DNA of 64,000 bases. Source: an uncultured Candidatus Saccharibacteria bacterium. Lineage in GTDB: Bacteria; Patescibacteriota; Minisyncoccia; UBA6257; 1-14-0-10-44-23. The stretch lies in the NCBI GenBank assembly GCA_964549935.1, contig CAZJVT010000003.1, positions 14,634-78,633 of the forward strand, given 5' to 3'. A program made the position numbers and the translations under genes. Of the stretch, positions 2,243 through 59,663 are shown one piece after another. Below the pieces are notes generated by a model. It made no database searches and was not told where the DNA came from. It was given only the letters and a program-made list of their open reading frames with translations. Position 1 is the first letter of the stretch; every line of letters starts with the position of its first letter.

Positions 2243-2266
2243 TTAATCCTGTAGGCTTCCTATTAT
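2243..2266 (+). promoter_or_regulatory. recurring motif copy 1: TTAATCCTGTAGGCTTCCTATTAT
   Basis: Matches core TTAATCYTGTMTnCT and lies 43 nt before ATG 2286. An AT-rich spacer with TTGACG sits upstream. Confidence 0.5.
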
Positions 2267-2285
2267 TCGCAGATAGGATGCCGAT

Positions 2286-3113
2286 ATGTCCGACGCCCCG
2301 GAGTTCAGCGATCTGCAGCGACAGATGATGCTCCATGCCATCGGCGCCGGCGAGGGCAAGGGCCCCTACCGCAACCGCTATTTCCTCTACCGCGGATCCG
2401 ACCGGCAGCCCGCCTGGGACGACCTCGTGGCCCGCGGCTATGCAGGCTTCGAAGACATGCCGCCGGTCGCCGGCCTGAGCCCGGACGATCCGCCGACCCC
2501 GTCCAAGCAGCGCTGCTACTGGCTGACGGAAAAGGCCCTCTTTCATCCGGATCTCCACCGGGGCCAGAAGCCGGTGCTGGTCTCCTCCATGTACTTCTCC
2601 TACGACGGCCATCAGCGCGCGGGCGTCACCGCGAAGACCACCTTCGACGCGATCCTTCTCGGCCAGCGCACATCGACCACCCGTTTCCGGAAGTGGGGCG
2701 GCACCGATAAGTGGGCGGCCAAGGAGGCCGGCACCCTCGTACGCTTCCATGCGGACAAGCTCTGCAAGTCGGACGAGTACGTCGACGTGGTCATCACCGC
2801 GGTCGAGAACATCGACCTTCGCTGGTGCGCTCCCGCGGATCGGGAGCGCTGGAGCCGGTGCGAGGGCTGGACCGAGTCCCAGGGGCAGACCTTCGGCATG
2901 CGCAACGGCAACGCGGTCTGGGTCCACTACAAGCTACTCACCATGAGCCCAGGCGCCGAGAAGCGCCTCGAGCGAGCCAAGGCGCAGATCGCCCACGAGG
3001 CCGAAGTCATGGCGCGTCTGGCTGCCGAGCAGAAGGCTGCCGACGAGGCCGGGGAGACGGCCGAGGCCGTTCCCGAAAGAGCCGCAACCCGCAACCTGGA
3101 GCCCACGGCATGA
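2286..3113 (+). CDS. hypothetical protein (275 aa)
   Basis: First gene after motif copy 1, with coding-like composition. The C-terminal 130 aa vaguely resemble an ASCH/PUA-like fold (GQRTSTTRF). Confidence 0.5.
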   Translation: MSDAPEFSDLQRQMMLHAIGAGEGKGPYRNRYFLYRGSDRQPAWDDLVARGYAGFEDMPPVAGLSPDDPPTPSKQRCYWLTEKALFHPDLHRGQKPVLVSSMYFSYDGHQRAGVTAKTTFDAILLGQRTSTTRFRKWGGTDKWAAKEAGTLVRFHADKLCKSDEYVDVVITAVENIDLRWCAPADRERWSRCEGWTESQGQTFGMRNGNAVWVHYKLLTMSPGAEKRLERAKAQIAHEAEVMARLAAEQKAADEAGETAEAVPERAATRNLEPTA

Positions 3114-3343
3114 GCAAGCCAGTTCCCGTCGACTTCCGCCCGATCTCCGAAACAGCCCTTCGCGCCATCGTCGGCGTCATGGGACCGTCGGCGGTCGCCA
3201 AGCAGGCGATCGATCATTGCCAGGAGATCCGCGGCCGCGGCGGGGACCCGGTCTGCATGAAGGGTCCCGACAGCTATGTCGTGCTGGACGCCGTCGCCGC
3301 CGTGAAGGGCGATGCCGACCGCGGCATCCAGCTGGCGATCTAG
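3110..3343 (+). CDS. small hypothetical protein (77 aa)
   Basis: ATG at 3110 overlaps the TGA of the upstream gene (ATGA) and is in frame within ORF 2711..3343. Confidence 0.3.
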   Translation: MSKPVPVDFRPISETALRAIVGVMGPSAVAKQAIDHCQEIRGRGGDPVCMKGPDSYVVLDAVAAVKGDADRGIQLAI

Positions 3344-3354
3344 TCGGCGGACCG

Positions 3355-4101
3355 ATGACCCGCCAGACGCGCATCGTCCTCTCCGGCGCCGACGAGGACG
3401 TCGACCTCCAGGCCCTCGCCGCGATCGTCGGCGGCAAGCCATGGCTCGAGCTCGGCATCCTTTCGGCCGGCAAGACGAGCGCGATGTACCGATATCCCGA
3501 GATGCCCTGGATCCTGGCGCTCGGCCAGGCGGGCATCGCTCCGCTGTCGCTGCATCTCTGCGGGCGCGAGACCCAGCGCTTCGTCGTCGGCGAGCTGATC
3601 GGCGCGCCCAAGGGCTTCCAGACCCTCCAGATCAACACCAAGGGTCTCATCGATCGCCTCGATGTGCCGTCGTTGATGACCGCCATGTGGGACATGTGGC
3701 GGACCGTCTCGCACTTCGTCGTGCAGGTCCCCTCGATCGATCATCCGATGGTGCGCGCGGTGGCCGAGCTGGCTCCGCCGAACGCAGGGATCCTCGCGGA
3801 TGGATCGGGCGGCACCGGCAATCCTCACTGGAAGCCGGCGCTTCCATCCGATCCCAAGCTGGCTGCCAGGCTCGAGGGACGCATCGGCTTCGCCGGCGGC
3901 CTCACACCTGAAACAGTCGGCCCGCGCCATGCCGAAATCCGCGAGGCGCTCGGCCATGACCGCTTCTGGATGGACATGGAGACGGGCCTTCGCACCAAGG
4001 ACGACCTGATGGACCTCGAGAAGGTGCGACAGGTGGTGGAGACGATGGAAATCGCCTTGGCGGAACCTTCGCTGGCCGCCTCTTCTTCGCCGACGGTTTA
4101 G
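3355..4101 (+). CDS. phosphoribosylanthranilate isomerase (TrpF)-like TIM-barrel protein
   Basis: C-terminal half matches the PRAI pattern: ILADGSGGTGNPHW (compare LLD..GGSG..FDW), FAGGL, and downstream G/D positions. The N-terminus is divergent. Confidence 0.45.
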   Translation: MTRQTRIVLSGADEDVDLQALAAIVGGKPWLELGILSAGKTSAMYRYPEMPWILALGQAGIAPLSLHLCGRETQRFVVGELIGAPKGFQTLQINTKGLIDRLDVPSLMTAMWDMWRTVSHFVVQVPSIDHPMVRAVAELAPPNAGILADGSGGTGNPHWKPALPSDPKLAARLEGRIGFAGGLTPETVGPRHAEIREALGHDRFWMDMETGLRTKDDLMDLEKVRQVVETMEIALAEPSLAASSSPTV

Positions 4102-4123
4102 AAGAAGAGCCACAGGCTGCCCT

Positions 4124-4819
4124 ATGCAAACTCGACGATTTCCTGGCTCTCATCTCGCAATTGGGTCACGCGAGATACAGATCCTCCGACGCCTGGCCTG
4201 GCCAGAAGGCGGCAAGAAAAGCTTAAAGCCGGTGCGACTGGGCAGCGGAGATGCCTATGTCGTGCGTGGCCGAGGTGCGGGATTTCACGGCACGGATCTG
4301 GCTCTCCATCCCATCAAGGCACAGCGCCTGAAGCGTCTGCTCCTGGTCGATCTCAATGGAGCCATCACCTGCGCCGGTCATAAAGCTCTCATCGACCTGC
4401 TGCTTCATCCCGTCTTCAACGATCGGGCGGAACCCTGCGCCAAGGCAGAAGAAGCTCTGAAGACCGCGACGATCAACGACTTGTCGCGAATTCTGGAGAC
4501 CCACTCCGATCTCGCCCACATCCTGCTGGACCAGGACCTCGCATGCCTCTGGAAGTTCGAGCCGAAAGTAGATCGCAGGGCATTGGCGATGCGGCATTTC
4601 GAAGCCGCTGTCCTTCGTGCAACCGAAGGCAACCAGAACGATCGTGCCCTGGAAATGGACCGCGAAGTCATTGAGAGGTCTGTCGAGATCCCGGTGGCCG
4701 AGCTGCCATACATCGAGAATAGCCTGACGAAGGCGCTGATTCCGATCCTTCGATGGTTTCGTTTGTTCCCGCGGCCCGTACACCGCGCAGACTCCGCATC
4801 GCCGGCCTGGCATTCATGA
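4124..4819 (+). CDS. hypothetical protein, tandem paralog family 1 (member a)
   Basis: Shares LRRLAWPEGG...GFHGTDLALHP...ITCAGHKALIDLLLHP with the next gene. Confidence 0.5.
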   Translation: MQTRRFPGSHLAIGSREIQILRRLAWPEGGKKSLKPVRLGSGDAYVVRGRGAGFHGTDLALHPIKAQRLKRLLLVDLNGAITCAGHKALIDLLLHPVFNDRAEPCAKAEEALKTATINDLSRILETHSDLAHILLDQDLACLWKFEPKVDRRALAMRHFEAAVLRATEGNQNDRALEMDREVIERSVEIPVAELPYIENSLTKALIPILRWFRLFPRPVHRADSASPAWHS

Positions 4820-5370
4820 CCCGTGCCTCCCTTCCCCGTCCCGGCATCAGCTGCGGCATCTCCATGCGGGACTTCCAGGTCCTGCGGCGCCTGGCGATCC
4901 CCTCCGAGGACGGCGAGGCCCGCGCGGTCCGGAAGGGCAGCAACAGCAACTATTTCGTCACCGGCACCGGGCCGGCCTTCCATCAGCACGACCTCCATAT
5001 CCAGAAGAGCAGCATCGGCGTGCTGAGCCATTTCGGGCTGATCGACGAAGCTGGTCGGATCACCGTCGCCGGTCACGACTATCTTCGGAGCTTCCTGCTT
5101 CATCCTCTCGACCTCGATGCCGACGGACGTCGCGAGACCGCCGAGACCGCACTCCGCGGACTGCGCATGGAGACGATGGGCGTCATCGCCGGCGACATGA
5201 TCCAGATCGGACGGATTTTCGAATCCACGGATGCCCGGTGGCTCGTCCACTGCGAGCCCAAGCTCGATCCGGTCGCTTATGCGCTGCGTCGGGCGGAAGA
5301 GATCCTGATCGGCACGCTCGACGCCGATCTGACACCTGCGGCAATCGGGCCGCGAGGCCCCGGAGAGTAA
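4816..5370 (+). CDS. hypothetical protein, tandem paralog family 1 (member b)
   Basis: ATG 4816 overlaps the upstream TGA (ATGA). Shares LRRLAIPSEDG...AFHQHDLHI...ITVAGHDYLRSFLLHP with member a. Confidence 0.5.
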   Translation: MTRASLPRPGISCGISMRDFQVLRRLAIPSEDGEARAVRKGSNSNYFVTGTGPAFHQHDLHIQKSSIGVLSHFGLIDEAGRITVAGHDYLRSFLLHPLDLDADGRRETAETALRGLRMETMGVIAGDMIQIGRIFESTDARWLVHCEPKLDPVAYALRRAEEILIGTLDADLTPAAIGPRGPGE

Positions 5371-5593
5371 AGGCATGGCGGGCACGGGGATCTACGCGCC
5401 GATCGGCGCTTTGAGCTTTCTCGCCTCTCCCTTAACTTATCGGCATGTGCCGACACGATCACACCAGCCTCCTGGACCGCGTTTCCACCGGCATCGGGGC
5501 ATTGCGTCGTGGCGGCGGGTCCTCCGCCAGAGCCGGCCTTCCTGCCGCTGCCCTGTCAGAAAATAGCCGCTTCGGACATCGAGAAAACTAACC

Positions 5594-6172
5594 ATGAGCG
5601 TCGCCAACACGGATCTCCCAGCTCCTCCCGACGGCTTCGCCGGGCCCGAGGATCCGCTCTTCGCCGTGCGCCATGGCGATGCTGGCTTCTTCCTCCGTCC
5701 CATGGGCGTGTGGCCGGCCTTCCAGTTCTATGGTCGCTGCAGCCAGCTCTACTTCGACGGCAATGATCACCTGACCGGCCAGGCGCAGCTCGGGCTTCGC
5801 ATGGTGAAGTCCTCGGGCGACAAGACCTTCCTTCGCATCGTCGAGCCTTGGGCTCGGATCGAACCGCTTCTGCGCCGGACCTGGCTTCGGCTCGAGTGGG
5901 GCCAGCCCCACGTCGCCGCGAAGGTGCTCGAGCTCATCGAGCCGACTCTCAACAGCAACGGGACCTATGCCGTGGCGATCACCGACGACGGGGTACGTCG
6001 GATCCGGTTCAACGGCGCCATCGTCTTCATCAAGGATTTCTGGCCAGGCAAGGGGCTGGTAGACGTCCTCGATCAGCTGGCGGCCGAACATGGATTCGCC
6101 GTCGAGGATCTGCATCACGAGCCGATGGAGCCGCCGATCGGACGGTCAAGGTCGCCGGAGATGTCGCCATGA
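5594..6172 (+). CDS. hypothetical protein, tandem paralog family 2 (member a); ends ...SPEMSP
   Basis: 192 aa. The 3' end carries the conserved junction GGAGATGTCGCCATGA. Confidence 0.5.
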   Translation: MSVANTDLPAPPDGFAGPEDPLFAVRHGDAGFFLRPMGVWPAFQFYGRCSQLYFDGNDHLTGQAQLGLRMVKSSGDKTFLRIVEPWARIEPLLRRTWLRLEWGQPHVAAKVLELIEPTLNSNGTYAVAITDDGVRRIRFNGAIVFIKDFWPGKGLVDVLDQLAAEHGFAVEDLHHEPMEPPIGRSRSPEMSP

Positions 6173-6798
6173 GCCTCAAGCCGGCGATCACCGTCTCCTC
6201 CGGGCTTCCTCCATTGCCCGACGGCGTCGCCGAGGCTGGCGACCCCCTCTGGAGCGAGCGCTTCGGCGACGCCAAGTATGTGCTCAAGCAAGCCGGCGTC
6301 TGGTGGGAGACATTCGGTCGCTGCAGCCGTCTTGTCGAACGCTTCCGAAATCGCTGGACCGCTCAGATGGGCATCGAGCTTCGGCTCGTCAAAGGATGCC
6401 CTCTCGATCACAGGCAGGCGATCGAGAGCTGGAAAGCGATCGGCCCCTTGATGAAGCGCGAATGGCTCGCGCGACACGACGGGCCGCCGATCCCTGCGAG
6501 GATCATCCCCTTCCTGACGCCGAAGGCGGACACGACCCGCCTCTGGGCCGTGGCGATCAGCGATGACGGGTGCCGGCGCATCCGATATGGCGGCGTCGCA
6601 AAATGGCGAAGCCCTCTCACGTCGATCGTCGACTTCCTTCCCGGCACGGATCTTGGCGACATCCTGCCCATGCTTGCCGCCGATCACGGCTGGGATCCGG
6701 AGGCCCTTGAGATCGAGCGCCTCGATCCGCCTTATGTCCCCTCATTCATGAAGAGCGGAGCGACGAAGCCCGATTCCTCTCTCCGGTTCGGGATCTGA
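6169..6798 (+). CDS. hypothetical protein, tandem paralog family 2 (member b)
   Basis: ATG overlaps the upstream TGA. Shares a motif with member a: AVAISDDGCRRIRYGG versus AVAITDDGVRRIRFNG. Confidence 0.5.
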   Translation: MSLKPAITVSSGLPPLPDGVAEAGDPLWSERFGDAKYVLKQAGVWWETFGRCSRLVERFRNRWTAQMGIELRLVKGCPLDHRQAIESWKAIGPLMKREWLARHDGPPIPARIIPFLTPKADTTRLWAVAISDDGCRRIRYGGVAKWRSPLTSIVDFLPGTDLGDILPMLAADHGWDPEALEIERLDPPYVPSFMKSGATKPDSSLRFGI

Positions 6799-6810
6799 CT
6801 GGAGATCGAG

Positions 6811-7374
6811 ATGGCTTCGCATTTCATGCACACGTCCTTCGGACTCGTCATGCCGCGCGCGGCCGGCATTCTCGTCCTCGCCGCGGCGAAAGCCTGGGAT
6901 GCGATCGAGGGCGATGGCTTTCACGAGAGCGCGCTCGATTTCGTCTCGCATGCAGAGCGCGTCGAGCTCGCCAGGATCGTCGAGGCCCGGGACAGCACCG
7001 ACGACGCCATCTTCGAGTCCCTTTCCGGGATCCTTCGCGAGATCAACGACGAGAACTTCAAGCTCGGCATCCAGCTGTCATGGGAACGCGACGGCGCCAA
7101 CGAGTATCTCTGGGGCCGCTCCGATCAAGGCGGAGACCTGGAGATGGTCGTACGCATCGTCCAGGAATCCATGCGCCGCTACGGCATCGAGTCCGTCTAC
7201 ACCATCAAGTACGCGCACACCTGCTCGAGGCCGATGCTGAACATGTTCGAGGGCGGCGGCGTCGCTTTCGACGCGACGAGAACGGAGTGGATCCAGATCG
7301 GTCCTCTTCTCGATGCGGCGGCCGAGCGCCTTTCCGAGCCCAGGCCCGCTTCACTGCCGTCTCCTGGCGCCTGA
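6811..7374 (+). CDS. hypothetical protein, tandem paralog family 3 (member a)
   Basis: YTIKYAHTCSRPMLNMFEGGGVAFDATRTEWIQIGPLLDAAAERL is conserved in the next gene. Confidence 0.5.
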   Translation: MASHFMHTSFGLVMPRAAGILVLAAAKAWDAIEGDGFHESALDFVSHAERVELARIVEARDSTDDAIFESLSGILREINDENFKLGIQLSWERDGANEYLWGRSDQGGDLEMVVRIVQESMRRYGIESVYTIKYAHTCSRPMLNMFEGGGVAFDATRTEWIQIGPLLDAAAERLSEPRPASLPSPGA

Positions 7375-7391
7375 CCGATCGCGAGAGTCCA

Positions 7392-7958
7392 ATGGCCAAC
7401 AACTACACCCTCACCTCGTTCGCCCTCGAGCTTGATCGCGCCGCGGGCAACCTCCTCATCATCGCCGCCGACGTCTGGAAAGACGACATCGACGCCGCGC
7501 GCGAGAAGATCTCCAAGCTCGAGCAGGAGGAGCTCTGCCAGCTTGCAGCGGCGATCGAGGCGACCGAGCCGGACGCGAACACTGTCATTCTCGCGATCGA
7601 AGCGATGATCGCCGACATCGACCCGGACAAGATGCCGCTCGGCATCGAATTCTCATGGGACGGGCTTCGCAAGAAACCGACCATCTGGGGCCGAAGCGAG
7701 GAAAGCTTCGCCATCGAGAACACCGTCGCCCTGATCCAGTCGGTGATGGCCGCCTTCGGCATCCGGGGGGTCCACACGATCCGCTGGGCGAATACCTGCT
7801 CCAAGCCGGTCTATGACGAGTTCGGCGGCGGCGCCGTGGTGTTCAACGCCGAGGAAGCGACGTGGATCACGCTCGATCCCGCGATAGAAGCCGCCGAGAA
7901 GGCGCTCGCGCCGAAACCGTCTCCAGCTCCCGGTACGGGTCTACAGCGTTTCTCCTGA
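7392..7958 (+). CDS. hypothetical protein, tandem paralog family 3 (member b)
   Basis: HTIRWANTCSKPVYDEFGGGAVVFNAEEATWITLDPAIEAAEKAL aligns with member a. Start at ATG 7392, in frame within ORF 7080..7958. Confidence 0.5.
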   Translation: MANNYTLTSFALELDRAAGNLLIIAADVWKDDIDAAREKISKLEQEELCQLAAAIEATEPDANTVILAIEAMIADIDPDKMPLGIEFSWDGLRKKPTIWGRSEESFAIENTVALIQSVMAAFGIRGVHTIRWANTCSKPVYDEFGGGAVVFNAEEATWITLDPAIEAAEKALAPKPSPAPGTGLQRFS

Positions 7959-7989
7959 TGAAATCAGATTGCCACTTTCTCCGGGATCT

Positions 7990-8008
7990 GTTAACAAATA
8001 CGTTAACA
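7990..8008 (+). promoter_or_regulatory. direct repeat GTTAACA-N5-GTTAACA just upstream of abiEii start
   Basis: Reads GTTAACAAATACGTTAACA, about 18 nt before ATG 8026. This is a candidate operator for TA autoregulation. Confidence 0.35.
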
Positions 8009-8025
8009 CATTTCGGAATCCGAGC

Positions 8026-8988
8026 ATGACCACCCAGATCGTCTACCTGTCGGGAAAAGGGCTTCTCACCCGCGACGAGCAGCTCGAGATCGCTGTGCGC
8101 ATGCAGGGCGCGACGATCGAGGAGATCTTCCGGGCCACCGACTGGGACGTGAAGAAGGCCGTCTTCCAGGGCGGCACCTCGCTCGGCATCTGCTGGAAGT
8201 CGCCTCGGTTCTCGGAAGATCTCGACCTGCTGGTGGCGGCCGATATCGGCGTCGAGGACGTCGCCCGAACGATGCGGCGCGTCGTGGCAAAGGTCGAGCA
8301 GCGCCTGGCGCTCATGATCCCTGGCTCGCGCTTCGAGCTCAAGGAGCCCCAGATCGAGAAGGTGCGCAACCTGATCCGCTGCGAGATCAAGTGGTCGCAT
8401 CCAGGCCGCAAGGACAAGGTCTCGACCCGGGTCGAATTCTACCGCGTCGACAGGGAGCTCCTCGCCCAGTACCAGTCGACCTATGTCAGCCCAAATGCCG
8501 GCAGCATCTGCAACGGTCGCATCGAGGTAACGACGGCGATCCCGGTCGCGACACCGGAGACGCTGCTCGCCGACAAGGTCAAGGCGCTCGCCGACCGTCC
8601 TTTTCTGAAGCATCGCGACCAGTTCGACATCTGGTTCATCTCCAGCGTGATGGGCATCCGCATGGAGCGGCCGCGGCTCCGACAGGCGCTCGAGACCTGC
8701 GCGGCGATGTATAGCTACGACCTCGCCGTCATGCGCGCGAAGCTGGCCGCCTACCTTGCAAGTCCGGTCAGCCTCGACGAGGAGAAGCTCTCCCAGGACC
8801 TTGATCGCTGGCTGCCCGAGGACGTCTACCGGCAGCTCGTCGAGCGCGACACCTTCAAGGAGATGCTCGCTTCCGTGCGAGGGGTCATCGAGCAGACGAT
8901 CGAGGCCATCGACATGAAGCCGACGAGCCCGGCTGGGGGCTCCGGCGGATCGATCCCGGACAGGACGGTTTCCTCGCCGTCGTTCTAG
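8026..8988 (+). CDS. abiEii: AbiEii/AbiGii-family nucleotidyltransferase toxin (DUF1814)
   Basis: FQGGTSLGICWKSPRFSEDLDLLV matches the KGGTAL...RFSEDIDF signature. Length is about 320 aa. Start at M20 of ORF 7969..8988. Confidence 0.65.
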   Translation: MTTQIVYLSGKGLLTRDEQLEIAVRMQGATIEEIFRATDWDVKKAVFQGGTSLGICWKSPRFSEDLDLLVAADIGVEDVARTMRRVVAKVEQRLALMIPGSRFELKEPQIEKVRNLIRCEIKWSHPGRKDKVSTRVEFYRVDRELLAQYQSTYVSPNAGSICNGRIEVTTAIPVATPETLLADKVKALADRPFLKHRDQFDIWFISSVMGIRMERPRLRQALETCAAMYSYDLAVMRAKLAAYLASPVSLDEEKLSQDLDRWLPEDVYRQLVERDTFKEMLASVRGVIEQTIEAIDMKPTSPAGGSGGSIPDRTVSSPSF

Positions 8989-9027
8989 CGTCATCCCCAG
9001 CACCCTTTCTCCAGGGCTTCCGGCATC

Positions 9028-9732
9028 ATGGGCAAGTCGAACCAGAGCGCGATCGCCAGGCTCCGGCAGCTCCCTTACGTCTTCGATCTTCGCGACCTCA
9101 GGACCACCTTCGAGCTCGGCAAGGGGATCGACCGCGTCCTGGTCAGCCGATGGAGGGACGCATCTCTCATCGAGCCGGTGGGCCCGAATGCCGGCCTCTA
9201 CTACAACCTGGTCCGCGATCCGGACGGCGCCAAGCAGCGCATCGGCGAGGCGATCCGCCGGCGCTTTCCCGCGGCCGTCGTGATCGGATCGTCGGCGATC
9301 CATGCCGGCGGCTGGACCACGCAGATCCCCCGCCGCATCTCAGTGGCTGTCCCCAGCGAGAGTTATGGCGCCCAGATGACGGGCGTCCGGCTGCTGAACC
9401 GGTCCAGGACCTGGTATGCGCGCATCCAGCCCGGCCTCCACCTCACCGAGGAGGAGATGATCGATCGGATCGGGTTGAGGGCAACCGCGGCGGCGACCGA
9501 CCCGATGATCCGGATCGGCATGGACGGGCTGCCGACCCTGCACCCGGCCTGGGCTCTTGCCGACCAGCTCCGCTACAAGGACGACTGGGTCCCGGATCCG
9601 GACGACCTCGACAACCAGGCGGTCGACCGGGAGCAGGACGAGCTGAAGGCGGCCTACAAGGCGCTGAACGTCAAGGTGCCGAAGGAATACCGGCCGGCGG
9701 AGCTGGCGGAGGGGCTGGGCCCGAGGATTTAA
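9028..9732 (+). CDS. abiEi: AbiEi-like antitoxin/transcriptional regulator (wHTH N-terminus), unusually placed downstream of the toxin
   Basis: The N-terminus IARLRQLPYVFDLRDLRTTFELGKGIDRVLVSRWRDASLIEPVGPNAGLYYNL resembles the AbiEi N-terminal domain. It lies 40 nt after abiEii. Confidence 0.45.
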   Translation: MGKSNQSAIARLRQLPYVFDLRDLRTTFELGKGIDRVLVSRWRDASLIEPVGPNAGLYYNLVRDPDGAKQRIGEAIRRRFPAAVVIGSSAIHAGGWTTQIPRRISVAVPSESYGAQMTGVRLLNRSRTWYARIQPGLHLTEEEMIDRIGLRATAAATDPMIRIGMDGLPTLHPAWALADQLRYKDDWVPDPDDLDNQAVDREQDELKAAYKALNVKVPKEYRPAELAEGLGPRI

Positions 9733-9812
9733 TATAACGTCTATTGATCCGGACCAGCCGTGGTTGCAGGATACCACCCTTGCGTTGTGCATTTGCTTCG
9801 GGGGAGGCCAGA

Positions 9813-10544
9813 ATGAAACCGCAGCTGATCATCGCTGTCGCCCTTGTTCCGTTTCTCGGCGGCGTGGCTCAAGCCGCGGATTTCCCCACCGAGCAGCAGA
9901 TGCGCGGGATCGTGTTCGGCTGTGGCGGCGGGATCTCGGACAGGATGAAGGGAGAAGTTCAGGGGCGGATCGACCTCTGGCGAAAGGCTGCAGAAGCAAC
10001 CGCGAGTGGCAGCAAGGATCTCCTGTCCGGAATCTTGAGTATTACGCCAACCGGCCAGCAGATAAGCGAAGCGAACTACAAGACATTCACTCAATGCATT
10101 CTTGAAGCGATCGACCGCGCGCTTGGCGTAAAGAAACCTCGCGATCTGGTCGAGATGGATTGGAAGTATCCGCGATCCCAGCGAGTGACATACAGCCGCG
10201 AACTGCGTCCGGATGTCGTCGACGAAAAGCCCTGCTTCAGGTTGCCGCCGCGGGCTGAGCCGATCGAGGGCAAGACCAGCATCGTGCTGGTGAAAGCGCG
10301 CGAGACCGTTCCTGGCGGAGAGCAGGCAGACCCCAGCGAAGATCCTGCGGCTTTCGCCAATCGGAATCCGGCCGGTGTCAGAAGCCAGTGGTTCGATATC
10401 CGGCAGGATCTCGAGAAAAATCCCTACTACGTCGTCTGCGCGCACATCACGCATGATGGAAGCGCCAACAAGGGCGAGGATGCCGGCACGCGAACGATCT
10501 CGAGCTTCCTTCCAGCCGGCAAGATTCTCCTTCCGCGCCCCTGA
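9813..10544 (+). CDS. secreted hypothetical protein (signal peptide MKPQLIIAVALVPFLGGVAQA)
   Basis: SD GGGGAGG lies before ATG 9813. The N-terminus is hydrophobic and ends in AQA-A. Confidence 0.5.
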   Translation: MKPQLIIAVALVPFLGGVAQAADFPTEQQMRGIVFGCGGGISDRMKGEVQGRIDLWRKAAEATASGSKDLLSGILSITPTGQQISEANYKTFTQCILEAIDRALGVKKPRDLVEMDWKYPRSQRVTYSRELRPDVVDEKPCFRLPPRAEPIEGKTSIVLVKARETVPGGEQADPSEDPAAFANRNPAGVRSQWFDIRQDLEKNPYYVVCAHITHDGSANKGEDAGTRTISSFLPAGKILLPRP

Positions 10545-10590
10545 CCCTCTGACCTGATGCTCGCGCCCCAGGATCTCTACACGCTTTCTC

Positions 10591-10617
10591 TATAATCCTG
10601 TATGCTCCTGCTGATGG
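10591..10617 (+). promoter_or_regulatory. recurring motif copy 2: TATAATCCTGTATGCTCCTGCTGATGG
   Basis: Lies 54 nt before ATG 10645. Confidence 0.5.
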
Positions 10618-10644
10618 TGGCAGATTGCCGCCCGCCGGAGCACC

Positions 10645-11967: not shown

Positions 11968-11969
11968 CC

Positions 11970-12836
11970 ATGCAAGCCGACCCGCTGATCGTCCGCTACG
12001 CCGAGCGCTTGAGGGAAACCGGCATCGTATCGGGACCAGATATCCTTTCGGACATTCTCAGGATCGCGGTCTGCGTTAGTCTCGAGGCCACGATCGCGCC
12101 TATCGAGATGGCGATCGCGCAATCGATCGAGCGAGGCGATCGGCAAGCTGCCGGCGCGCGCTATCACAAGGGCTACACCATCTTCGCCCCGGATATGGGT
12201 CGCGATCGACGCGGGTATGCGATCCAGGGGTTCGACTACGGATACCTGATTGTCCTTGAGACGGACCTGCGCAGCCACGGCACCCTCTTCAGTCGCCGCA
12301 CCGTCCCCGCTCCGGAGCTTGCCCCTTACGTCGACGCCGGCGAGGACTTGAAGCTGCCGACGGAGATCTCCGTCCACGGGTACCATGTCTCCAAAAATGG
12401 CAACGACCGCTCATTCGAGACGCTGGTCGACAGCATCAAGCGAGGCTTTCGCTACCAGCTGATCGCCTCGGCGGGGCAGTCCGCGTTCCTCGACCGGCGG
12501 CGGGATCTCTACGCCGGCGGCTGTCATTCACTGATGAGGCCCGATGCCTGGATCGGTCTCTTCGACGCCCTCAGGTTCGCCTTCGCCATGTGCGACCTCA
12601 CCGATCGCATGCGAAGCGCGTCGGAAGAGATCCACCGCATGGAGCTGGCGCCGATCGGAGATCTGGTGTGCGAGGCCATCCACTGGATCGGCCGGCACCT
12701 GGCCAGGATCGAGGAGCACCTCCCCAGTCGAGTCACCACGCTTCGTCTCGGCATGCTCGAGCGCCATCTCGAGGATGAATCCGAACGCTCCTGGCACGCG
12801 CCCTCGCGGATCCGTTCGCTGGAGATGTCGCCATGA
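11970..12836 (+). CDS. hypothetical protein (288 aa), family 4 member b; ends ...SLEMSP
   Basis: Start ATG 11970 (or GTG 11964 overlapping the upstream TGA). Shares SLEATIAPIEMA...YTIFAPDMGRDRRGYAIQGFDYGYLIVLETD with members a and c. Confidence 0.5.
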   Translation: MQADPLIVRYAERLRETGIVSGPDILSDILRIAVCVSLEATIAPIEMAIAQSIERGDRQAAGARYHKGYTIFAPDMGRDRRGYAIQGFDYGYLIVLETDLRSHGTLFSRRTVPAPELAPYVDAGEDLKLPTEISVHGYHVSKNGNDRSFETLVDSIKRGFRYQLIASAGQSAFLDRRRDLYAGGCHSLMRPDAWIGLFDALRFAFAMCDLTDRMRSASEEIHRMELAPIGDLVCEAIHWIGRHLARIEEHLPSRVTTLRLGMLERHLEDESERSWHAPSRIRSLEMSP

Positions 12837-13741: not shown

Positions 13742-13744
13742 GTC

Positions 13745-14869: not shown

Positions 14870-14879
14870 GGAGACCCCG

Positions 14880-15254: not shown

Positions 15255-15256
15255 CC

Positions 15257-15718: not shown

Positions 15719-15725
15719 CGAACGA

Positions 15726-16079: not shown

Positions 16080-16285
16080 CAATGTCCGGCCCCTTTTCCA
16101 TCTCGTCACGGATCCTCAGCTTCTACCGTTTGAGATCGGCGATCAACCGCTCGTCCGGCCGCGGCCGCGCCATTTCCGTCTCGATCCGGCGCTCGAGGGC
16201 GTCACGGCCGGACATCAGCTCGTCGAGGGTCTGCTTTGCCGGCGCTTCCGAGATGCTAAGGGCAATGCACGCTCGGCGCTTTCTC

Positions 16286-16312
16286 TTTAATCGTGTATAC
16301 TATTGCCTACAC
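16286..16312 (+). promoter_or_regulatory. recurring motif copy 3: TTTAATCGTGTATACTATTGCCTACAC
   Basis: Lies 44 nt before ATG 16330 and contains TATACT. Confidence 0.5.
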
Positions 16313-16329
16313 TGACAGAGATTTTCCCC

Positions 16330-20130: not shown

Positions 20131-20153
20131 TATAATCTTGTATTCTCCTGCCT
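20131..20153 (+). promoter_or_regulatory. recurring motif copy 4: TATAATCTTGTATTCTCCTGCCT
   Basis: Immediately precedes ATG 20154; the real start may be GTG 20172. Confidence 0.45.
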
Positions 20154-30390: not shown

Positions 30391-30420
30391 ATTAATCTTG
30401 TCTGCTTTCTATGATACAAG
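30391..30420 (+). promoter_or_regulatory. recurring motif copy 5: ATTAATCTTGTCTGCTTTCTATGATACAAG (contains CTTGT-N14-ACAAG inverted repeat)
   Basis: Sits in the divergent spacer between dnaE (GTG at 30376) and the plus gene at 30525. Confidence 0.5.
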
Positions 30421-30524
30421 GAGGCCAAGAAAGCGTCACGCGAAAGGTGCCAAGTGGCTGAAATTGCGGGATTGCTGTATGTGCAGCAGCAGCCCGGCGG
30501 CGACCACGGAAGGAATATGCGAGC

Positions 30525-31520: not shown

Positions 31521-31548
31521 ATAATATCGTGCCCGCACAGTATTATAC
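31521..31548 (+). promoter_or_regulatory. motif variant ATAATATCGTGCCCGCACAGTATTATAC in divergent spacer
   Basis: A near-duplicate lies at 34047..34073. It sits 15 nt from the leftward start at 31506 and 60 nt from the rightward ATG at 31607. Confidence 0.35.
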
Positions 31549-34046: not shown

Positions 34047-34073
34047 ACTATCGCGTCCGCCTAGTATTATAGG
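34047..34073 (+). promoter_or_regulatory. motif variant ACTATCGCGTCCGCCTAGTATTATAGG in 46-bp divergent spacer
   Basis: Lies between leftward ATG 34031 and rightward ATG 34078. Confidence 0.35.
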
Positions 34074-40130: not shown

Positions 40131-40158
40131 GATTTATCGTGTTCGCTATATAGCATGG
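40131..40158 (+). promoter_or_regulatory. recurring motif copy: GATTTATCGTGTTCGCTATATAGCATGG (orphan; no plus gene within 600 nt)
   Basis: Sits 17 nt from the leftward start at 40114. Only a 39-codon plus ORF follows it. Confidence 0.4.
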
Positions 40159-40657: not shown

Positions 40658-40741
40658 GCCCTGAGGATACCAGGAGGGAAAGAAAGCGCGGAGGCCGGAC
40701 TTCGTCGCGCCTCCATGATTTCGGATGGCTTGGCGCTTCCT

Positions 40742-40768
40742 GATTTATCTCGTATACTCTTTGCCATA
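40742..40768 (+). promoter_or_regulatory. recurring motif copy: GATTTATCTCGTATACTCTTTGCCATA
   Basis: Lies 13-39 nt before ATG 40781. Contains TATACT, and an AGGAGG SD follows. Confidence 0.5.
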
Positions 40769-47760: not shown

Positions 47761-47790
47761 TCGGATGGTGCGGACAGGATTATTATAACC
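47761..47790 (-). promoter_or_regulatory. recurring motif copy (minus orientation): GGTTATAATAATCCTGTCCGCACCATCCGA
   Basis: Lies 15-44 nt upstream of the IcmB/DotO-like ATG at 47746. Confidence 0.5.
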
Positions 47791-54201: not shown

Positions 54202-56073
54202 TCAGCCGCCGCTCTTGAGGGTCGTCTTCTCGAGGACGACCTCCCATTGGCCCTTGGCCAGCCGGATCTCGCGGATCTTGCCGAGCCCCGGAAGAGTGTC
54301 GCCGGGGCGCACCTCGACGAGCTCCGCCTCGGGGGCGTTCATGTTCTGCAGCCATGCGAGACCCGGCGTCGCCGAGCGGATCGCCCAGCTCGGCTTCGAG
54401 GTCCTGGCATCCGCTTTCTCGGCCGTGGCCTTATCCGCGGTCGATGCGGCCTTGTCGTTGGTGGCCTTTGCGTCCGCCTTCGCGGTCTTTGCCGGAGGTT
54501 GGCGGAAGGGATTGGCCTCGGCGGCCGGCGGCGCGGCATGCGCCGGCATTGCCGCGGCGGACTGGACCTGCTTCACGCGTCCGTCGATCTCCTGGATTTC
54601 GGCGCGGAGCTTCGCGGTCGCGGAAAGAGACTGGCTCGAGTTGGCGGCCGAACGGGCAAGGCCGGCCTCGACCGCCTGAAGTCGCTCGTCCAGTCGCGTA
54701 AGCGCGGCCGCGAGCTTGTCGAGGAGATCGGGAGCGACGACCTGCCCGGCCGGGGAGTTGGTCCCCGCCGCCTGGGCGGGGCCCGCGGTCGAGATCGCCC
54801 GCGAGACCGGAGCGGACGGCTGAGCGGGAGATTGTGCCGGAGCCGGAGATGGAGCCGCAGCGAGAACCGGGAGCGAAGAAGGCGCCGGAGCCGGTGCGGG
54901 AGTGATCGAAGCGACAGGAGCCGTCGCCTGGGGCGGAGAGAGACCTTGCTGGCCTGGGCTAGGCACGGAACCCTGGCCCGTCACGGTCGGGACGGGCACG
55001 GCCGGCGGCGCCGGTTGTGCCGAGCCCTGGGCACCTGGAGCCTGGCCACCGGGAGCTGGAGCGATCGAGGCGACCGCGCCGGAAGGCTTCTGCTGCCCGG
55101 GAACCTGAACCTGGGCAGCGACGATCGGCGCCGATGCGCCGCGGAGCGCCGACGCGTCGACCGGCGACGGCGACGAATTGAAATGACCTCCGCTGAAGAG
55201 CACGGCGACGGATACGAAGACGGCCGAGGCCGCCATCGCTCCGTAGACGATCAGCTTCCGCGTCTTCTTCCCGTCGTCGACCGGCTCTTCCTGCGCGGCA
55301 TCGGCATTGTCCGCTTCCTCGACGACCTCGCCGTCGGCCGCCTCGGAATGAACCTGGTCATCCTCGTCGCCATCATGGATGGGATCGTCATCGTCCTGCT
55401 CGGCGTCACGGTCGTCGCCCTCGTCCTGTGGCGAGAGGTCGAGCGTGGAGAGATCCTCGAGAGGCTCCTCCGCGACATCCGGAACCGGCGGCAGCGGCGC
55501 CAGGGGAACGGTCTCCGGGCTCAGCGGGGCGCTCAGATGGTCCCGCACCAGATCGAGGGGATCGGATCCCCTGGGGGAGGCCGGCGGAAGGCCGGCCGGA
55601 ACAGGTTGTGCCGGAAGAGGCTGGGCTGCGACATGCGGTGCCGGCGCCGGCTGAGGCGCGGAAGCGATCGGCGGAGATGGACGACGCATCTCATGGGCGA
55701 TCGGCTGGTCGTCATCGGAAACGGCCGGCGGAACCGGCCCCGGTTGAACCGCGGCGGGCGCGGCCGAGGCCGGCGGCGTGGCGATCGCCGAAGGGAGCGG
55801 CGGTGCGGGAGGAGGCATGTAGGCAGGCGCGGCGGCCGGCGCCGGAACAGGACGCGGCGCGGCCATCTTGGTCATGACCGCGGCGCCGCCCTCGGACGGA
55901 GAAGCAGGGGAAGGAGACGGAGGGGCGACGGGCGGAGAAGCCGGCGCCTGAACCGCGGCCTGGTTGGCAACCGGCCTCGCGGGCATGGCGGCGGGCCGCT
56001 GGGCCGGGAACGGCTTGCCTGCCGGGCCGCTCCGGTCGAAATCCACATCCGCAGAGGCCAGCGCGCTGTTCAT
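54202..56073 (-). CDS. Pro/Ala-rich bitopic membrane protein (623 aa) in the DotF/IcmG position
   Basis: An acidic N-terminus is followed by a TM (LIVYGAMAASAVFVSVAVLF), a long P/A-rich low-complexity region, a coiled coil and a C-terminal globular tail. Confidence 0.4.
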   Translation of the reverse strand: MNSALASADVDFDRSGPAGKPFPAQRPAAMPARPVANQAAVQAPASPPVAPPSPSPASPSEGGAAVMTKMAAPRPVPAPAAAPAYMPPPAPPLPSAIATPPASAAPAAVQPGPVPPAVSDDDQPIAHEMRRPSPPIASAPQPAPAPHVAAQPLPAQPVPAGLPPASPRGSDPLDLVRDHLSAPLSPETVPLAPLPPVPDVAEEPLEDLSTLDLSPQDEGDDRDAEQDDDDPIHDGDEDDQVHSEAADGEVVEEADNADAAQEEPVDDGKKTRKLIVYGAMAASAVFVSVAVLFSGGHFNSSPSPVDASALRGASAPIVAAQVQVPGQQKPSGAVASIAPAPGGQAPGAQGSAQPAPPAVPVPTVTGQGSVPSPGQQGLSPPQATAPVASITPAPAPAPSSLPVLAAAPSPAPAQSPAQPSAPVSRAISTAGPAQAAGTNSPAGQVVAPDLLDKLAAALTRLDERLQAVEAGLARSAANSSQSLSATAKLRAEIQEIDGRVKQVQSAAAMPAHAAPPAAEANPFRQPPAKTAKADAKATNDKAASTADKATAEKADARTSKPSWAIRSATPGLAWLQNMNAPEAELVEVRPGDTLPGLGKIREIRLAKGQWEVVLEKTTLKSGG

Positions 56074-56100: not shown

Positions 56101-56130
56101 CGTTTAGGTATGAGTCTACAGGATTTATCC
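56101..56130 (-). promoter_or_regulatory. recurring motif copy (minus orientation): GGATAAATCCTGTAGACTCATACCTAAACG
   Basis: Lies 28-57 nt upstream of ATG 56073, with SD GAGGG between them. Confidence 0.5.
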
Positions 56131-57233: not shown

Positions 57234-58100
57234 TCAGGATCCGCGGCCGGGAACGTAGAGGGCGCGCGGCTTTCCTTCGCCGTTCATCACCCGGATATAC
57301 TTGTCGGTCTCGCAGAGGATGTTCGGCACGTCGCTGAAGTCCATTGCGACGCCGGTCTCCTGCTGGACGATCTCGTAGATCGCGCGCATCTCGTCGAGCG
57401 CCTGGGACTGGGAGAGCGCGCCGTCGGTCTTGCGCCCATGCAGGCGGTTCAGGCCGCGGATCGTGCCAGGGCCAGCGGCCGCCCAGGTCGCAACATCCGC
57501 CGCCTCCTCGAGCAGCGCGGTGAAGCGCATGTCGACGACGGCCTGGTAAGCCATGAACTGGCCCCAGCCGTTGGATTTCATGATGAGGGCGTGCATGCCC
57601 TGGAGCGTCGGGGCCCCGCGGAGATACGCCGTAATCTCGCCGCGCCGGCGCCAGAGATCGCCGATCACCGTCTCCGCGATATAACGCTGCTTGTCGGCGC
57701 CCTTCTCGGCCGGCGCCGAGATCATATAGGCGCCGGTGTAGACCTTGTCGCCGCGGTCTTTCCGTTCGTTGAGGATGACGGCCATGCGCTCGGTGAAATC
57801 GAAGCGCGTCGCATCGGGAAGCCCTCCGGCCTCCCGGAGTTCGACGAAGGTGTCGGGCCAGTTGATCTGGCGGAAGATGCACAGCAGCAGCCACAGATGC
57901 GGGCTGTCCCGATACGGGATGCGGATGCTGTCGCGCACGAAGCGCGTCACACGATCGTCCTCGCGTCGCACGTTGCAGAACCGGTAGGTCGACAGGATGG
58001 GATCCTCGGTCCAGGGACCAGGCTCGCCTGCGTCCTTGCGGAAGCGAATGCGCTCGCGCTCGCGGATCCAATCGAAAAGTGCCGTGTAGTCGGCCGGCAT
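57234..58100 (-). CDS. hypothetical protein (288 aa)
   Basis: Begins 5 nt after the DotG-like stop. No domain recognised. Confidence 0.45.
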   Translation of the reverse strand: MPADYTALFDWIRERERIRFRKDAGEPGPWTEDPILSTYRFCNVRREDDRVTRFVRDSIRIPYRDSPHLWLLLCIFRQINWPDTFVELREAGGLPDATRFDFTERMAVILNERKDRGDKVYTGAYMISAPAEKGADKQRYIAETVIGDLWRRRGEITAYLRGAPTLQGMHALIMKSNGWGQFMAYQAVVDMRFTALLEEAADVATWAAAGPGTIRGLNRLHGRKTDGALSQSQALDEMRAIYEIVQQETGVAMDFSDVPNILCETDKYIRVMNGEGKPRALYVPGRGS

Positions 58101-58105
58101 GACGC

Positions 58106-59413
58106 CTACTTCCTCTCACCCTGCGTCACGGGCTCGACGAAGATCATGCCGAGCTCGAGGCCCGGGTCAATCGTCACCGTCGGCTTCATCGAGCGCGCGT
58201 CGGCCTTGATGTCGCTGGCGATGGTCTTTCCGACCTCGCCGATGCCGGCCGCGACCGCGGTGCGGCTGGACGAGGACCCGTAGCTCGTGGTCGAACCGCC
58301 GAGAGGGTTCACGATCACGGTCTTGCCGGAGTTCGCCGCGATGTCGGCGAAGCCCGCGACGAAGCTGCCGGCCAGCGATGCCGCATAGCGCCAGTAGTGA
58401 TGGTCGACGTCGGAAGCAAGGCCGGACCGCGCGGTCGCGGGGTCGACGGCAAAGGCCGACGTCTTGTAGCTGCGGCCGTCCTTGAGCGTGATGGTGGTGA
58501 ACTGCAGCACCAGGACGTCGACGGAGTCCTTCTGCTCGAAATTGCCGATCATGCGCGCCCCCTTCAGGGGACCCGCCTCGAGCTCGGCGAGCACGGGCGA
58601 CGAGACGTCGGAACGCGCGCCGGTGATGAGGCGTGCATAGACGATGGTGCCGGCCGGGATCAGGACCTGGCCGCCCTGTCCTTGCGCGGTTCCTGCCTGT
58701 CCTGCCGCCTGGGACAACGCCTGCGCAGTCGGCGGAACCGCCTGGCCCCCGATCGTTCCCGAAAGCGGCTGCGCGCCCGGGCCGCCGGACGTCCGTTCGT
58801 TCTGACTGGCGACGACCACGGAGGGCTTCAGCTTCCAGCTGTCGAGGAGTGCCGCGGTCTGCGCCTTCATGGCGGCTACCAGCTGCTCGTCGCCCCGCAT
58901 TCCTGCCGGAATGGGCTCGGGCTGCTGCACCGCCCGGACCTGCGCCGTGGTCTGTGCCTGGACCGGTCGGGGCTCCGCCTGGCGCAGGGTCGACTGGAGG
59001 GGCGACGCCTCGGGCTTCACCTCGAGGGCCGATTGGGTATCGACCCGCGAAGAGACGCCGACGGTCGCGACCGCGCTGCGCCCGGTTTCCTGGGCACGGT
59101 CCGCCCTGTCCTGGTTGTCCTTGGACATCGCCTGCTGATAGGCCGGGGAGCTTGCCTGCTGGGCACCTCCCGGTACCGACCGCATGTCGGTCGCCTGGAC
59201 CAGGCTCGACGGAGGAGCGGAGCTGGTGCCGAGAGCCGCGAATGCCGCGACGCCGCCGACGATCAGGACCGCGGTGCCGCCAAAGAAGAGCAAGAGACGC
59301 GATCGTCCATCGGAAACGGCATGCGCCAGGCGCGCCCGAAGCTTCGGCGGCCGCGGTACGACAGGATCCGTAGCCGGACCGAGCGACGGTGCGTTGTCGT
59401 TGGGCTCGTTCAT
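58106..59413 (-). CDS. DotG/IcmE/TraO/VirB10-family protein (435 aa from M44)
   Basis: An N-terminal TM (LLLFFGGTAVLIVGGVAAFAAL) is followed by a Q/A-rich linker and a C-terminal beta-rich domain (LIPAGTIVYARLITGARSDVSSPVLAEL...VLVLQFTTITLKDGRSYKTSAFAVDP). This is the VirB10/TrbI fold pattern. Confidence 0.6.
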   Translation of the reverse strand: MNEPNDNAPSLGPATDPVVPRPPKLRARLAHAVSDGRSRLLLFFGGTAVLIVGGVAAFAALGTSSAPPSSLVQATDMRSVPGGAQQASSPAYQQAMSKDNQDRADRAQETGRSAVATVGVSSRVDTQSALEVKPEASPLQSTLRQAEPRPVQAQTTAQVRAVQQPEPIPAGMRGDEQLVAAMKAQTAALLDSWKLKPSVVVASQNERTSGGPGAQPLSGTIGGQAVPPTAQALSQAAGQAGTAQGQGGQVLIPAGTIVYARLITGARSDVSSPVLAELEAGPLKGARMIGNFEQKDSVDVLVLQFTTITLKDGRSYKTSAFAVDPATARSGLASDVDHHYWRYAASLAGSFVAGFADIAANSGKTVIVNPLGGSTTSYGSSSSRTAVAAGIGEVGKTIASDIKADARSMKPTVTIDPGLELGMIFVEPVTQGERK

Positions 59414-59625
59414 CGGATCATCGCCTTTCCACCGCCCTTGCGCGTCAGCCAGCGGCGCTGCTGGCGGCTGACGCCGCTGGGGATATCCATGCCGTGCGCC
59501 GGCGCCTTGGGCGCTTGCTGCGGGACGAGGGCGGAGCTGCACACAGTCGCAAGGATCTGCGACATGAGGACGTGACGGCCGGCGCCACCGACCACGTAGA
59601 CGATCTTCTGCTCGGAATCCGCCAT
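59410..59625 (-). CDS. small protein (71 aa) translationally coupled to the DotG-like gene
   Basis: ATGA overlap with the downstream start. Start at M15 (MADSEQKIVYVVGGAG...). Confidence 0.35.
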   Translation of the reverse strand: MADSEQKIVYVVGGAGRHVLMSQILATVCSSALVPQQAPKAPAHGMDIPSGVSRQQRRWLTRKGGGKAMIR

Positions 59626-59634
59626 AGTCGATCC

Positions 59635-59663
59635 GGTTAATCCTGTCTGCCTCTTATGATACA
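59635..59663 (+). promoter_or_regulatory. recurring motif copy: GGTTAATCCTGTCTGCCTCTTATGATACA (plus orientation inside minus-strand cluster)
   Basis: Lies 10 nt from the leftward start at 59625. No convincing plus gene sits downstream. Confidence 0.45.

Follow-up and report, generated by a model that had tools for sequence, protein, structure and literature searches.

An asymmetric 15-bp site recurs over the core promoters of most operon heads in a large Dot/Icm conjugative element and is most likely an operator

Results

The 64,000-nucleotide stretch analysed here (the window; contig CAZJVT010000003.1 of assembly GCA_964549935.1, positions 14,634 to 78,633; 65% G+C) appears to belong to a large conjugative element (about 224 kb) of the Dot/Icm type with an alphaproteobacterial host, and the same proteins are present on an NCBI contig of 224,460 bp. 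Identical Logan assemblies (runs SRR142713xx), which overlap the window without a mismatch, added 9.7 kb upstream and 8.2 kb downstream, giving 81.8 kb in total (82 kb below; negative coordinates lie upstream of the window), and genes were called from codon bias and compared with the gene calls on identical public contigs. An earlier reading of this DNA, referred to here as the original prediction, had proposed that a motif of 25-30 bp recurs in front of at least ten transcription units and marks an element-wide regulon. We show here that a shorter site stands at the heads of the operons for dnaE, for DotO and for DotG/TrbI with a 5-hmdU kinase, of both metallophosphatase genes, of a DUF1194/VWA gene and of long runs of genes without a known family; outside the window it also serves a DotD-DotB-IcmT-ParM operon.

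What recurs is an asymmetric 15-mer, (T/A)TAATCnTGTnnGCn, and the conserved unit measures 15-16 bp with about 15 bits of information, the remaining length of the proposed 25-30 bp being ordinary sigma70-type promoter parts. All ten copies listed earlier are present, with plus-strand 15-mers at 2243, 10592, 16287, 20132, 30392, 40133, 40744 and 59637 and minus-strand copies at 47769-47783 and 56113-56127; the earlier coordinates 47761 and 56101 are the far ends of the longer span. The two related variants that had been placed at 31521 and 34047 exist as well (31523 and 34047), but are weak and paralogous to each other. The plus copies stand 43, 53, 43, 22 and 37 nt from the start codons that they face, and the leftward starts follow the TTAATC end by 12-19 nt, both roughly as first described. 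Thirteen of 16 copies are on the plus strand; relative to the promoter, ten are co-oriented and six inverted. A preference for divergent junctions was also recognized correctly, since eight of the nine divergent intergenic regions in the 82 kb hold a copy.

The exact pattern TTAATCYTGTMTNCT matches the window once (30392-30406), and with up to two mismatches it matches nine times where 0.21 matches are expected, a count reached in none of 100 shuffles. A weight matrix trained on eight seed copies recovered six further intergenic copies (40133, 47783(-), -5400, -5664(-), -1079 and -694), the last four of which lie in the flanks, beyond the window. In the 82 kb, 14 sites score 12 bits or more, against 0.175 expected from shuffling of the intergenic DNA only and a maximum of two across 200 shuffles, in keeping with the enrichment over shuffled sequence that the original prediction implied. 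All 14 are intergenic, in a stretch of which 5.6 kb (7%) is intergenic DNA. An unbiased word count over the intergenic segments placed the motif pieces AATCCTGT, TAATCCTG and ATCCTGTA at the top of the enrichment, and the next word was CGCTTTCTC. Other alphaproteobacterial and Dot/Icm loci, 1.7 Mb in all, showed no excess, the density being about sevenfold lower in a comparison that favours the training sequence; the top score there was at most 20 bits, against up to 29.5 bits for seed copies under the seed matrix. The exact 15-mer gave 52 single matches in IMG/VR. One in-gene match, at 41902, was rejected as chance (14.2 bits against a mean top score of 13.3 in shuffles, and below 12 bits with an intergenic background).

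Inspection of the motif consensus ruled out IHF, DnaA-box, Pho-box, CtrA, LexA and sigma54 readings, in agreement with the earlier failure to match the CtrA, LexA or sigma54 consensus. The CtrA box is TTAA-N7-TTAA, whereas the second half of the site here reads TGCT, TACT, GGCT or similar and never TTAA.

Eight copies, which we call class I (2243, 10592, 16287, 20132, 40744, 56127(-), and -5400 and -694 outside the window), overlap a -10 box. Their 3' half consists of TG or CG and then a -10-type hexamer (TAGGCT, TATGCT, TATACT, TATTCT or TAGACT, with TATGCA at -5400), in which T at -12 and A at -11 are present in eight of eight and T at -7 in seven. Hexamers of the -35 type lie 16-17 bp upstream (TTGACG, TTGGCG, TTGTCA and, twice, TTTTCA; TACACG and TCGGCG are weaker) and are often directly followed by CTTTCTC. 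At copy -5400 no -35-like hexamer stands at this spacing; there, TATGCA is followed by a second TG-TAGGCT, and TATAAT lies just upstream. Counted from predicted starts, the class I site extends from about -21 to about -7; its TTAATC falls within the spacer (about -21 to -16), and a C is kept at -8 and often a G at -9. To our knowledge sigma70 requires neither TTAATC at -21 to -16 nor C at -8 or G at -9. The TATNCT hexamer noted in the original prediction is thus a true -10 box in class I, while elsewhere the -11 adenine is replaced by a pyrimidine. At 20141-20156 and 40658-40669, where the ATG stands only 6-7 nt past the -10 box, the predicted mRNAs are probably leaderless. Two paralogous calcineurin-like phosphoesterases (16330-17217 and 20154-21044, both on the plus strand) each have a class I copy of their own, and the second ends in a C-terminal TQTQTQTQ repeat.

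The other copies (class II) cannot be read in this way. In class IIa (30392, 59637, 40133, 31523, 34047 and, outside the window, -1079), pyrimidines occupy positions 11-12 in place of the -11 adenine, and a -35 box is missing too. The opposite strand instead carries TG-TATCAT, TG-TATAAT or TG-TAAAAT with a -35 of its own; five of the six copies have it 4 nt past the motif's 3' end. Counted from the predicted start of the leftward unit, the inverted site occupies about -2 to +13. These leftward promoters combine TATCAT, TATAAT or TAAAAT with GTGACG or TTGGACA. Copies 59637 and 40133 are flanked by two leftward genes and have no co-oriented gene to serve. The string TGTATNNT occurs six times on the two strands of the 64-kb window, in every case intergenic, correctly oriented and 7-38 nt from a start codon, if the duplicated and uncalled open reading frame at 31506 is included. 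In class IIb, which comprises 47783(-) ahead of IcmB/DotO and, outside the window, -5664(-) ahead of DotD, TATAAT or GACAAT overlaps the 5' end of the motif, TTCCAA or TTGACA stands 17 bp upstream, and the site covers about -8 to +7. Rather than one oriented promoter element ahead of every unit, as originally proposed, there are therefore three placements: overlapping the -10 box (8 copies), inverted in the initial transcribed region (6) and over the start site (2).

Promoter and gene N-terminus were duplicated together at 31523 and 34047. The paralogous leftward genes from 31506 and 34046 share the N-termini NANSFLSSDGKELFRDREFAKR and NPNSYLSSDGKEVFRDREFAKR along with promoter and motif; the 31506 copy is seemingly truncated or frameshifted, and no gene is called there in the public contig.

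The promoters under the site appear to be of the host sigma70 type. Class I and the leftward promoters of class IIa fit the sigma70 pattern, in which a -10 box with T-12, A-11 and T-7 follows a TTGACA-like -35 hexamer at 16-18 bp, although a generic consensus scan of positions 1-20000 returned no sigma70 promoter, its cut-off of 9/12 matches not being reached. Class II copies read on their own strand have neither A at -11 nor a TTG-type hexamer at 17 bp; the hexamers in question are TCTGCT, TCTGCC, TTCGCT, TTCGCC, CCCGCA, TCCGCC, TCTGCA and TCCGCA. Despite being unable to serve as a -10 box, class II retains TAATC, TGT and GC. The C at position 14 is invariant (16/16), G is found at position 13 in all eight class II copies, and positions 11-12 are A-K in every class I copy and Y-Y in every class II copy. 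Because these patterns exceed the needs of sigma70, they point to a second constraint acting in addition to the -10 box.

The motif can also be told apart from the core promoter, which consists of TTGRCG, often CTTTCTC, a total spacer of about 17 bp and TG-TAnnnT. The dnaE promoter (GTGACG-CTTTCTTGGCCTCCTTG-TATCAT) and the class I promoter at 10592 (TACACG-CTTTCTCTATAATCCTG-TATGCT) share this core with unrelated spacers, and at dnaE the motif is found not in the spacer but inverted downstream. At least four promoters with the same core have no motif at all (40671(-), 61065(-), 65664(-) and 69880(+)). In the promoters of dnaE, 40671(-) and 69880(+), the -35/CTTTC/TG-TAnnnT core is accompanied by unrelated letters where class I has TTAATC. 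Since same-core promoters exist without it, the motif is an add-on that is separable from the promoter. This separability, the copies without a gene to serve and the selective retention in class II together argue for a second reader of the DNA, namely a protein that binds the 15-mer. A second intergenic word, CGCTTTCT(C/T), directly follows the -35 box of several promoters, with or without the main motif.

Comparison with relatives gave a divided picture of the expectation that homologous elements carry the site. The 440-residue protein encoded downstream of copy 10592 has one homologue in 5.8 billion proteins, with 68% identity, on a 2-kb contig of run ERR14949493. Upstream of its gene, 15 of the 16 bases of the motif are retained, as are 40 of the 45 between the -35 box and about +15, and 27 aligned columns further upstream are 44% identical; this conservation supports a function. 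More distant relatives do not carry the site: a metagenome scan with IcmB/DotO yielded nine loci (32-45% identity, different GC content) without the motif, and it is likewise missing from L104 (run ERR3428548), the 53% relative found by DotO protein search. Because IcmB/DotO relatives at 32-53% are without it, the site would be lineage-specific. The DotO search also returned L105, a 48% relative that is chromosomal. A viral scan with DotO found no match, four concatenated motif-adjacent proteins used as a query gave distant matches only, and megablast with 42 kb of the window turned up no plasmid in PLSDB. The DnaE scan of genome contigs returned only chromosomal dnaE of Rhodospirillaceae and other Alphaproteobacteria, at 45-55% identity, and one short 62% fragment; these records indicate the host clade and served as the 1.7 Mb of negative control. 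By these searches the element is rare. In L104, a sigma70-family gene lies divergent from a Mom-like DNA modification gene (9942-11827), and neither has a counterpart in the 82 kb.

The original prediction had named two helix-turn-helix (HTH) proteins as candidate binders. That encoded at 49910-50260 matches a transposase-type HTH. The product of 933-2093 has a conserved N-terminal domain, 410 homologues across its two domains, and residues 1-82 confidently modelled as four helices at a predicted local distance difference test score (pLDDT) of 87; the best matches to this fold are almost all XRE/Cro-type repressors, and they are weak (E-values >=0.25, TM 0.4-0.6). Sequence searches with three candidate proteins against the PDB gave no match. 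A protein with a GcrA-type DNA-binding domain (DBD) is encoded just past the window (Table 1). It matches positions 2-66 of the 155 in the profile, is devoid of the sigma70-interacting domain and has C-terminal Cys pairs instead. Its methyl-pocket residues all differ, with R33, N34, I37 and G38 replaced by P, A, Q and L (PMC5887438). The matrix scan found no motif copy ahead of this gene, whose neighbours are genes for a 1102-residue DnaG-type primase and a YqaJ-like recombinase.

Table 1. Copies of the 15-bp site, promoters and genes discussed in the text (window coordinates)
Feature	Position	Strand	Remarks
Class I copy TTAATCCTGTAGGCT	2243..2257	+	-10 TAGGCT = positions 10-15; -35 TTGACG 2229-2234, 17 bp upstream; ATG 2286
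Class I copy ATAATCCTGTATGCT	10592..10606	+	-35-like TACACG, then CTTTCTC; ATG 10645; kept in relative L098
Class I copy TTAATCGTGTATACT	16287..16301	+	heads phosphatase gene 16330-17217
Class I copy ATAATCTTGTATTCT	20132..20146	+	ATG 20154 is 7 nt past -10; heads second phosphatase gene
Class I copy TTTATCTCGTATACT	40744..40758	+	-35 TTGGCG 40730-40735; heads DUF1194/VWA gene 40781-41455
Class I copy TAAATCCTGTAGACT	56113..56127	-	heads Pro-rich gene 54202-56073
Class IIa copy TTAATCTTGTCTGCT	30392..30406	+	no A at -11, no -35; inverted at about -2 to +13 of predicted leftward dnaE promoter
Class IIa copy TTAATCCTGTCTGCC	59637..59651	+	leftward -10 TG-TATCAT 59656-59663; start of leftward DotG/5-hmdU-kinase operon
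Class IIa copy TTTATCGTGTTCGCT	40133..40147	+	leftward -10 TATATA 40147-40152, TTGGACA upstream
Weak variant (class IIa) AATATCGTGCCCGCA	31523..31537	+	leftward -10 TG-TATAAT 31542-31549; paralogous to 34047
Weak variant (class IIa) ACTATCGCGTCCGCC	34047..34061	+	leftward -10 TATAAT 34066-34071
Class IIb copy ATAATCCTGTCCGCA	47769..47783	-	TATAAT 47782-47787 (-) overlaps 5' end; about -8 to +7 of predicted IcmB/DotO promoter
Possible degenerate copy TTAATGGATTAGGCT	2187..2201	-	9.8 bits, below chance threshold; faces gene 933-2093; 42 bp from copy 2243
Weak partner TTGATCGTGCCCACT	20076-20090	-	below chance threshold; 42 bp from copy 20132
Motif-bearing oligo sequence TTAATCCTGTCTGCT			
dnaE core promoter	30411..30439	-	GTGACG 30434-30439; 17-bp spacer CTTTCTTGGCCTCCTTG; TATCAT 30411-30416; no TTAATC in spacer
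Motif-free promoter CGCTTTCTT-N8-GG-TATCCT	40664..40696	-	ATG 6 nt past -10
Word CGCTTTCT(C/T)	10582-10590, 16277-16285		
Word CGCTTTCT(C/T)	30427-30435, 40680-40688	-	
Candidate regulator	933..2093	-	386 residues; divergent from copy 2243
GcrA-type DBD protein	65838-66326 (L101 5834-6322)	-	162 residues; about 2 kb past window; Pfam 27.8 bits, cut-off 26.9
5-hmdU DNA kinase	57234-58100	-	Pfam HMUDK_hel 1.8e-50; inside Dot/Icm operon beside DotG/TrbI
Anti-CBASS Acb1	49418-49906	-	phage-like/defence cargo
AbiEii toxin	8026-8988	+	phage-like/defence cargo
T4 Gp30.3	35702-36265	+	phage-like/defence cargo
RNase H	21739-22575	-	phage-like/defence cargo
Second DnaE	26573-30376	-	phage-like/defence cargo

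Part of the cargo is phage-like or related to defence (Table 1). The 5-hmdU DNA kinase has relatives of 61-70% identity on 11 IMG/VR viral contigs, which otherwise have nothing in common with the element and carry no motif; this suggests that thymidine hypermodification genes were borrowed from phages by a conjugative element. The second DnaE is full-length and only 45-55% identical to alphaproteobacterial chromosomal DnaE. Most other open reading frames have no Pfam family, and some are nearly without homologues in 5.8 billion proteins.

Two further features lie outside the window. Upstream of the DotD-DotB-IcmT-ParM-like operon, two motif copies in the divergent region flank an iteron-like array (L099 4040-4172, equivalent to window -5634 to -5502) with about eight copies of the 10-bp units TAGGATAATG and TAGGATACAT, arranged in two blocks with outer inverted symmetry; this array is a possible centromere or origin of transfer. 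The sole divergent intergenic region without the motif contains a sharply AT-rich stretch, TATATATATTATATTTCTTATAGTATAAAAATATATATATAGAATTAA, at about 69,480-69,620 (reverse complement of L101), which is a possible replication origin.

Discussion

The recurrent 15-mer described here is a promoter-associated, element-wide cis-regulatory site and most likely an operator. We put at about one in two the probability that it is the operator of an element-wide repressor, placed over the core promoters of most operon heads. One protein, encoded by the element or by the host, would bind the 15-mer wherever it is placed over a core promoter, and in all three placements the bound protein would compete with the binding of RNA polymerase, with opening or with initiation. 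One operator would in this way hold the operons for replication, transfer and cargo under common repression. A repressor is favoured because every placement would exclude polymerase or block initiation, and we regard the control as element-wide because the operons served span dnaE, Dot/Icm, the phosphatases, the VWA gene and runs of unknown families. The association with promoters and the position at operon heads, from dnaE and Dot/Icm transfer to both phosphatases and the cargo, are as the original prediction had them, and the pattern continues outside the window. As to the regulon that it postulated, the site does stand at most operon heads, but common control is something that we infer.

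Several observations weigh against a common repressor. Scans of about 70 open reading frames of the window and its flanks with Pfam and PHROGs revealed no clear regulator. The sites of HTH repressors are usually dyad-symmetric, and the consensus here has no dyad symmetry, which would be unusual for such a protein. Three pairs of copies (10592/16287, 30392/59637 and 31523/34047) are likely duplicated, so that the independent events are fewer than 16. The classes come from aligning all copies on the nearest TAnnnT hexamer, and the positions given rest on hexamer matches. Comparative support comes from a single short contig, where conservation extends over the whole promoter and does not set operator apart from promoter. 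The analysis covers 82 of the approximately 224 kb of the element.

The same duplications feed the plainest alternative, in which no extra factor is needed: strong host sigma70 promoters with an extended -10 and an AT-rich spacer would have spread by duplication, and class II would represent decayed or weak partners. The -35, TG and -10 elements of class I are credible, several copy pairs look duplicated, and conservation in the relative begins exactly at the -35 box. We nevertheless regard this explanation, which may hold for class I, as unlikely, given that all eight class II copies are without A-11 and -35 and yet keep TAATC, TGT and GC, which amounts to selective retention and not to random decay, that the same core type occurs with unrelated spacers, and that TTAATC at -21 to -16 and C at -8 fall outside the known sigma70 requirements. 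If the site has a reader, it need not be a repressor. An activator or a cofactor of RNA polymerase could use the site as its cis element, binding as a monomer near the start like GcrA of Caulobacter; relative to predicted starts TAATC is centred near -18 (class I) or +10 (class IIa), which can be compared with GcrA box positions, TAATC is one base away from GANTC, and a GcrA-DBD protein is encoded just outside the window. We think this quite unlikely: the conserved 15 bp include the -10 box, which must melt, class IIb is centred at about -5 and thus outside the GcrA positions, no copy contains GANTC, and the GcrA-DBD protein has no sigma70-interacting domain, differs in all four methyl-pocket residues and is encoded by a gene ahead of which no copy was found. 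A more speculative variant, to which we assign a still smaller chance, is that an element-borne monomeric factor, either the GcrA-DBD/Cys-rich protein or the XRE-like product of 933-2093, reads the unmethylated, GANTC-like TAATC together with TGTnnGC as a bipartite asymmetric element, acting within the spacer, at the start or in the initial transcribed region. If true, one small protein would allow a conjugative element to reprogram the sigma70 polymerase of its host at every operon that it carries, in a plasmid version of the GcrA mechanism.

Two other explanations replace the host promoter altogether or move the signal to a single strand. A highly conserved, asymmetric motif at operon heads could be the promoter of an alternative sigma factor or RNA polymerase encoded by the element, and the L104 relative, with 53% identity in DotO, does have a sigma70-family gene near its Dot/Icm genes. 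However, no gene for a sigma factor or polymerase was found in the 82 kb, the L104 sigma gene has no homologue there and L104 itself has no motif, copies 59637 and 40133 would produce antisense transcription only, and class I already fits sigma70 geometry, all of which makes this explanation very unlikely. Least credible, with hardly any probability in our view, is a structured element in single-stranded DNA or RNA, be it a single-strand promoter used on entry into the recipient or a hairpin in the 5' untranslated region. The excess of plus-strand copies and the short inverted matches downstream of some of them would fit, and the CTTGT-N14-ACAAG reported in the original prediction is indeed present at 30392. 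However, such downstream inverted matches are not general (5 of 16 copies against 2.15 expected, P = 0.055), ten 70-nt segments share no structure (fold z-scores between -2.5 and +0.55) and leave the motif mostly unpaired, Rfam gave 0 matches in the window, and the class I motif lies upstream of the predicted start.

The site provides a first map of transcription units in an element of at least 224 kb whose genes nearly all lack known relatives, and the 15-mer is a handle for finding the master regulator of the element. If it is an operator, the second dnaE, Dot/Icm transfer, the anti-defence genes (Acb1, AbiEii, 5-hmdU DNA kinase) and the cargo would switch together, as expected of a conjugative element that is silent in the donor and fires after transfer. 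In addition, the three placements of one asymmetric site form a natural test set for the effects of operator position and orientation on repression.

Global operator networks are known from conjugative plasmids, namely the KorA/KorB/TrbA network of IncP-1 RK2 and the ArdK/StbA/KorA network of IncW R388. In these networks, as proposed here, a short operator is repeated across the replicon, lies across the -10 box or the start, and places replication, maintenance and transfer under common repression; many copies at the promoters of different modules are what we find. However, Kor operators are palindromic and the R388 sites are short direct repeats, whereas the consensus here is a 15-mer without a dyad that occurs in either orientation, no regulator of the Kor, ParB or StbA type is linked to it, and the host is alphaproteobacterial with Dot/Icm-type transfer. 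In its asymmetry the site is closer to that of the repressor gp71 of mycobacteriophage L5, which binds an asymmetric operator of about 13 bp and the so-called stoperator sites. The two systems have in common an asymmetric site of about 13-15 bp without a dyad, present in many genome copies, at promoters and just past starts. Stoperators, however, lie mostly within transcription units and in strict orientation, while the copies here sit at core promoters in mixed orientation (10 co-oriented and 6 inverted), and no gp71 homologue was found for the element.

The promoters themselves resemble those of alphaproteobacterial sigma70, for which the RpoD -35 consensus in Caulobacter is TTGACGS: the -35 is TTGACG or TTGGCG, spacers are about 17 bp and the -10 is TAnnnT. 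That consensus has no TTAATC in the spacer, no invariant C at -8 and no TG abutting the hexamer. With respect to Caulobacter GcrA, which binds as a monomer to boxes that lie either within the spacer (-20 +/- 1 or -30 +/- 2) or downstream of the start (+5 to +30; PMC9976885), the likeness lies in an element predicted to stand in the -35/-10 spacer or just past the start, in the host clade and in a GcrA-type DBD encoded nearby (PMC9976885, PMC5887438). The GcrA box has a GANTC/YGAKTCG core methylated by CcrM, whereas the core here is TAATC, without GANTC and thus without CcrM methylation, and the site has 15 bp instead of 5-7 bp and overlaps the -10 box. The 15-mer is thus new in sequence and asymmetric in form, and it falls within the known class of global control sites of plasmids and phages.

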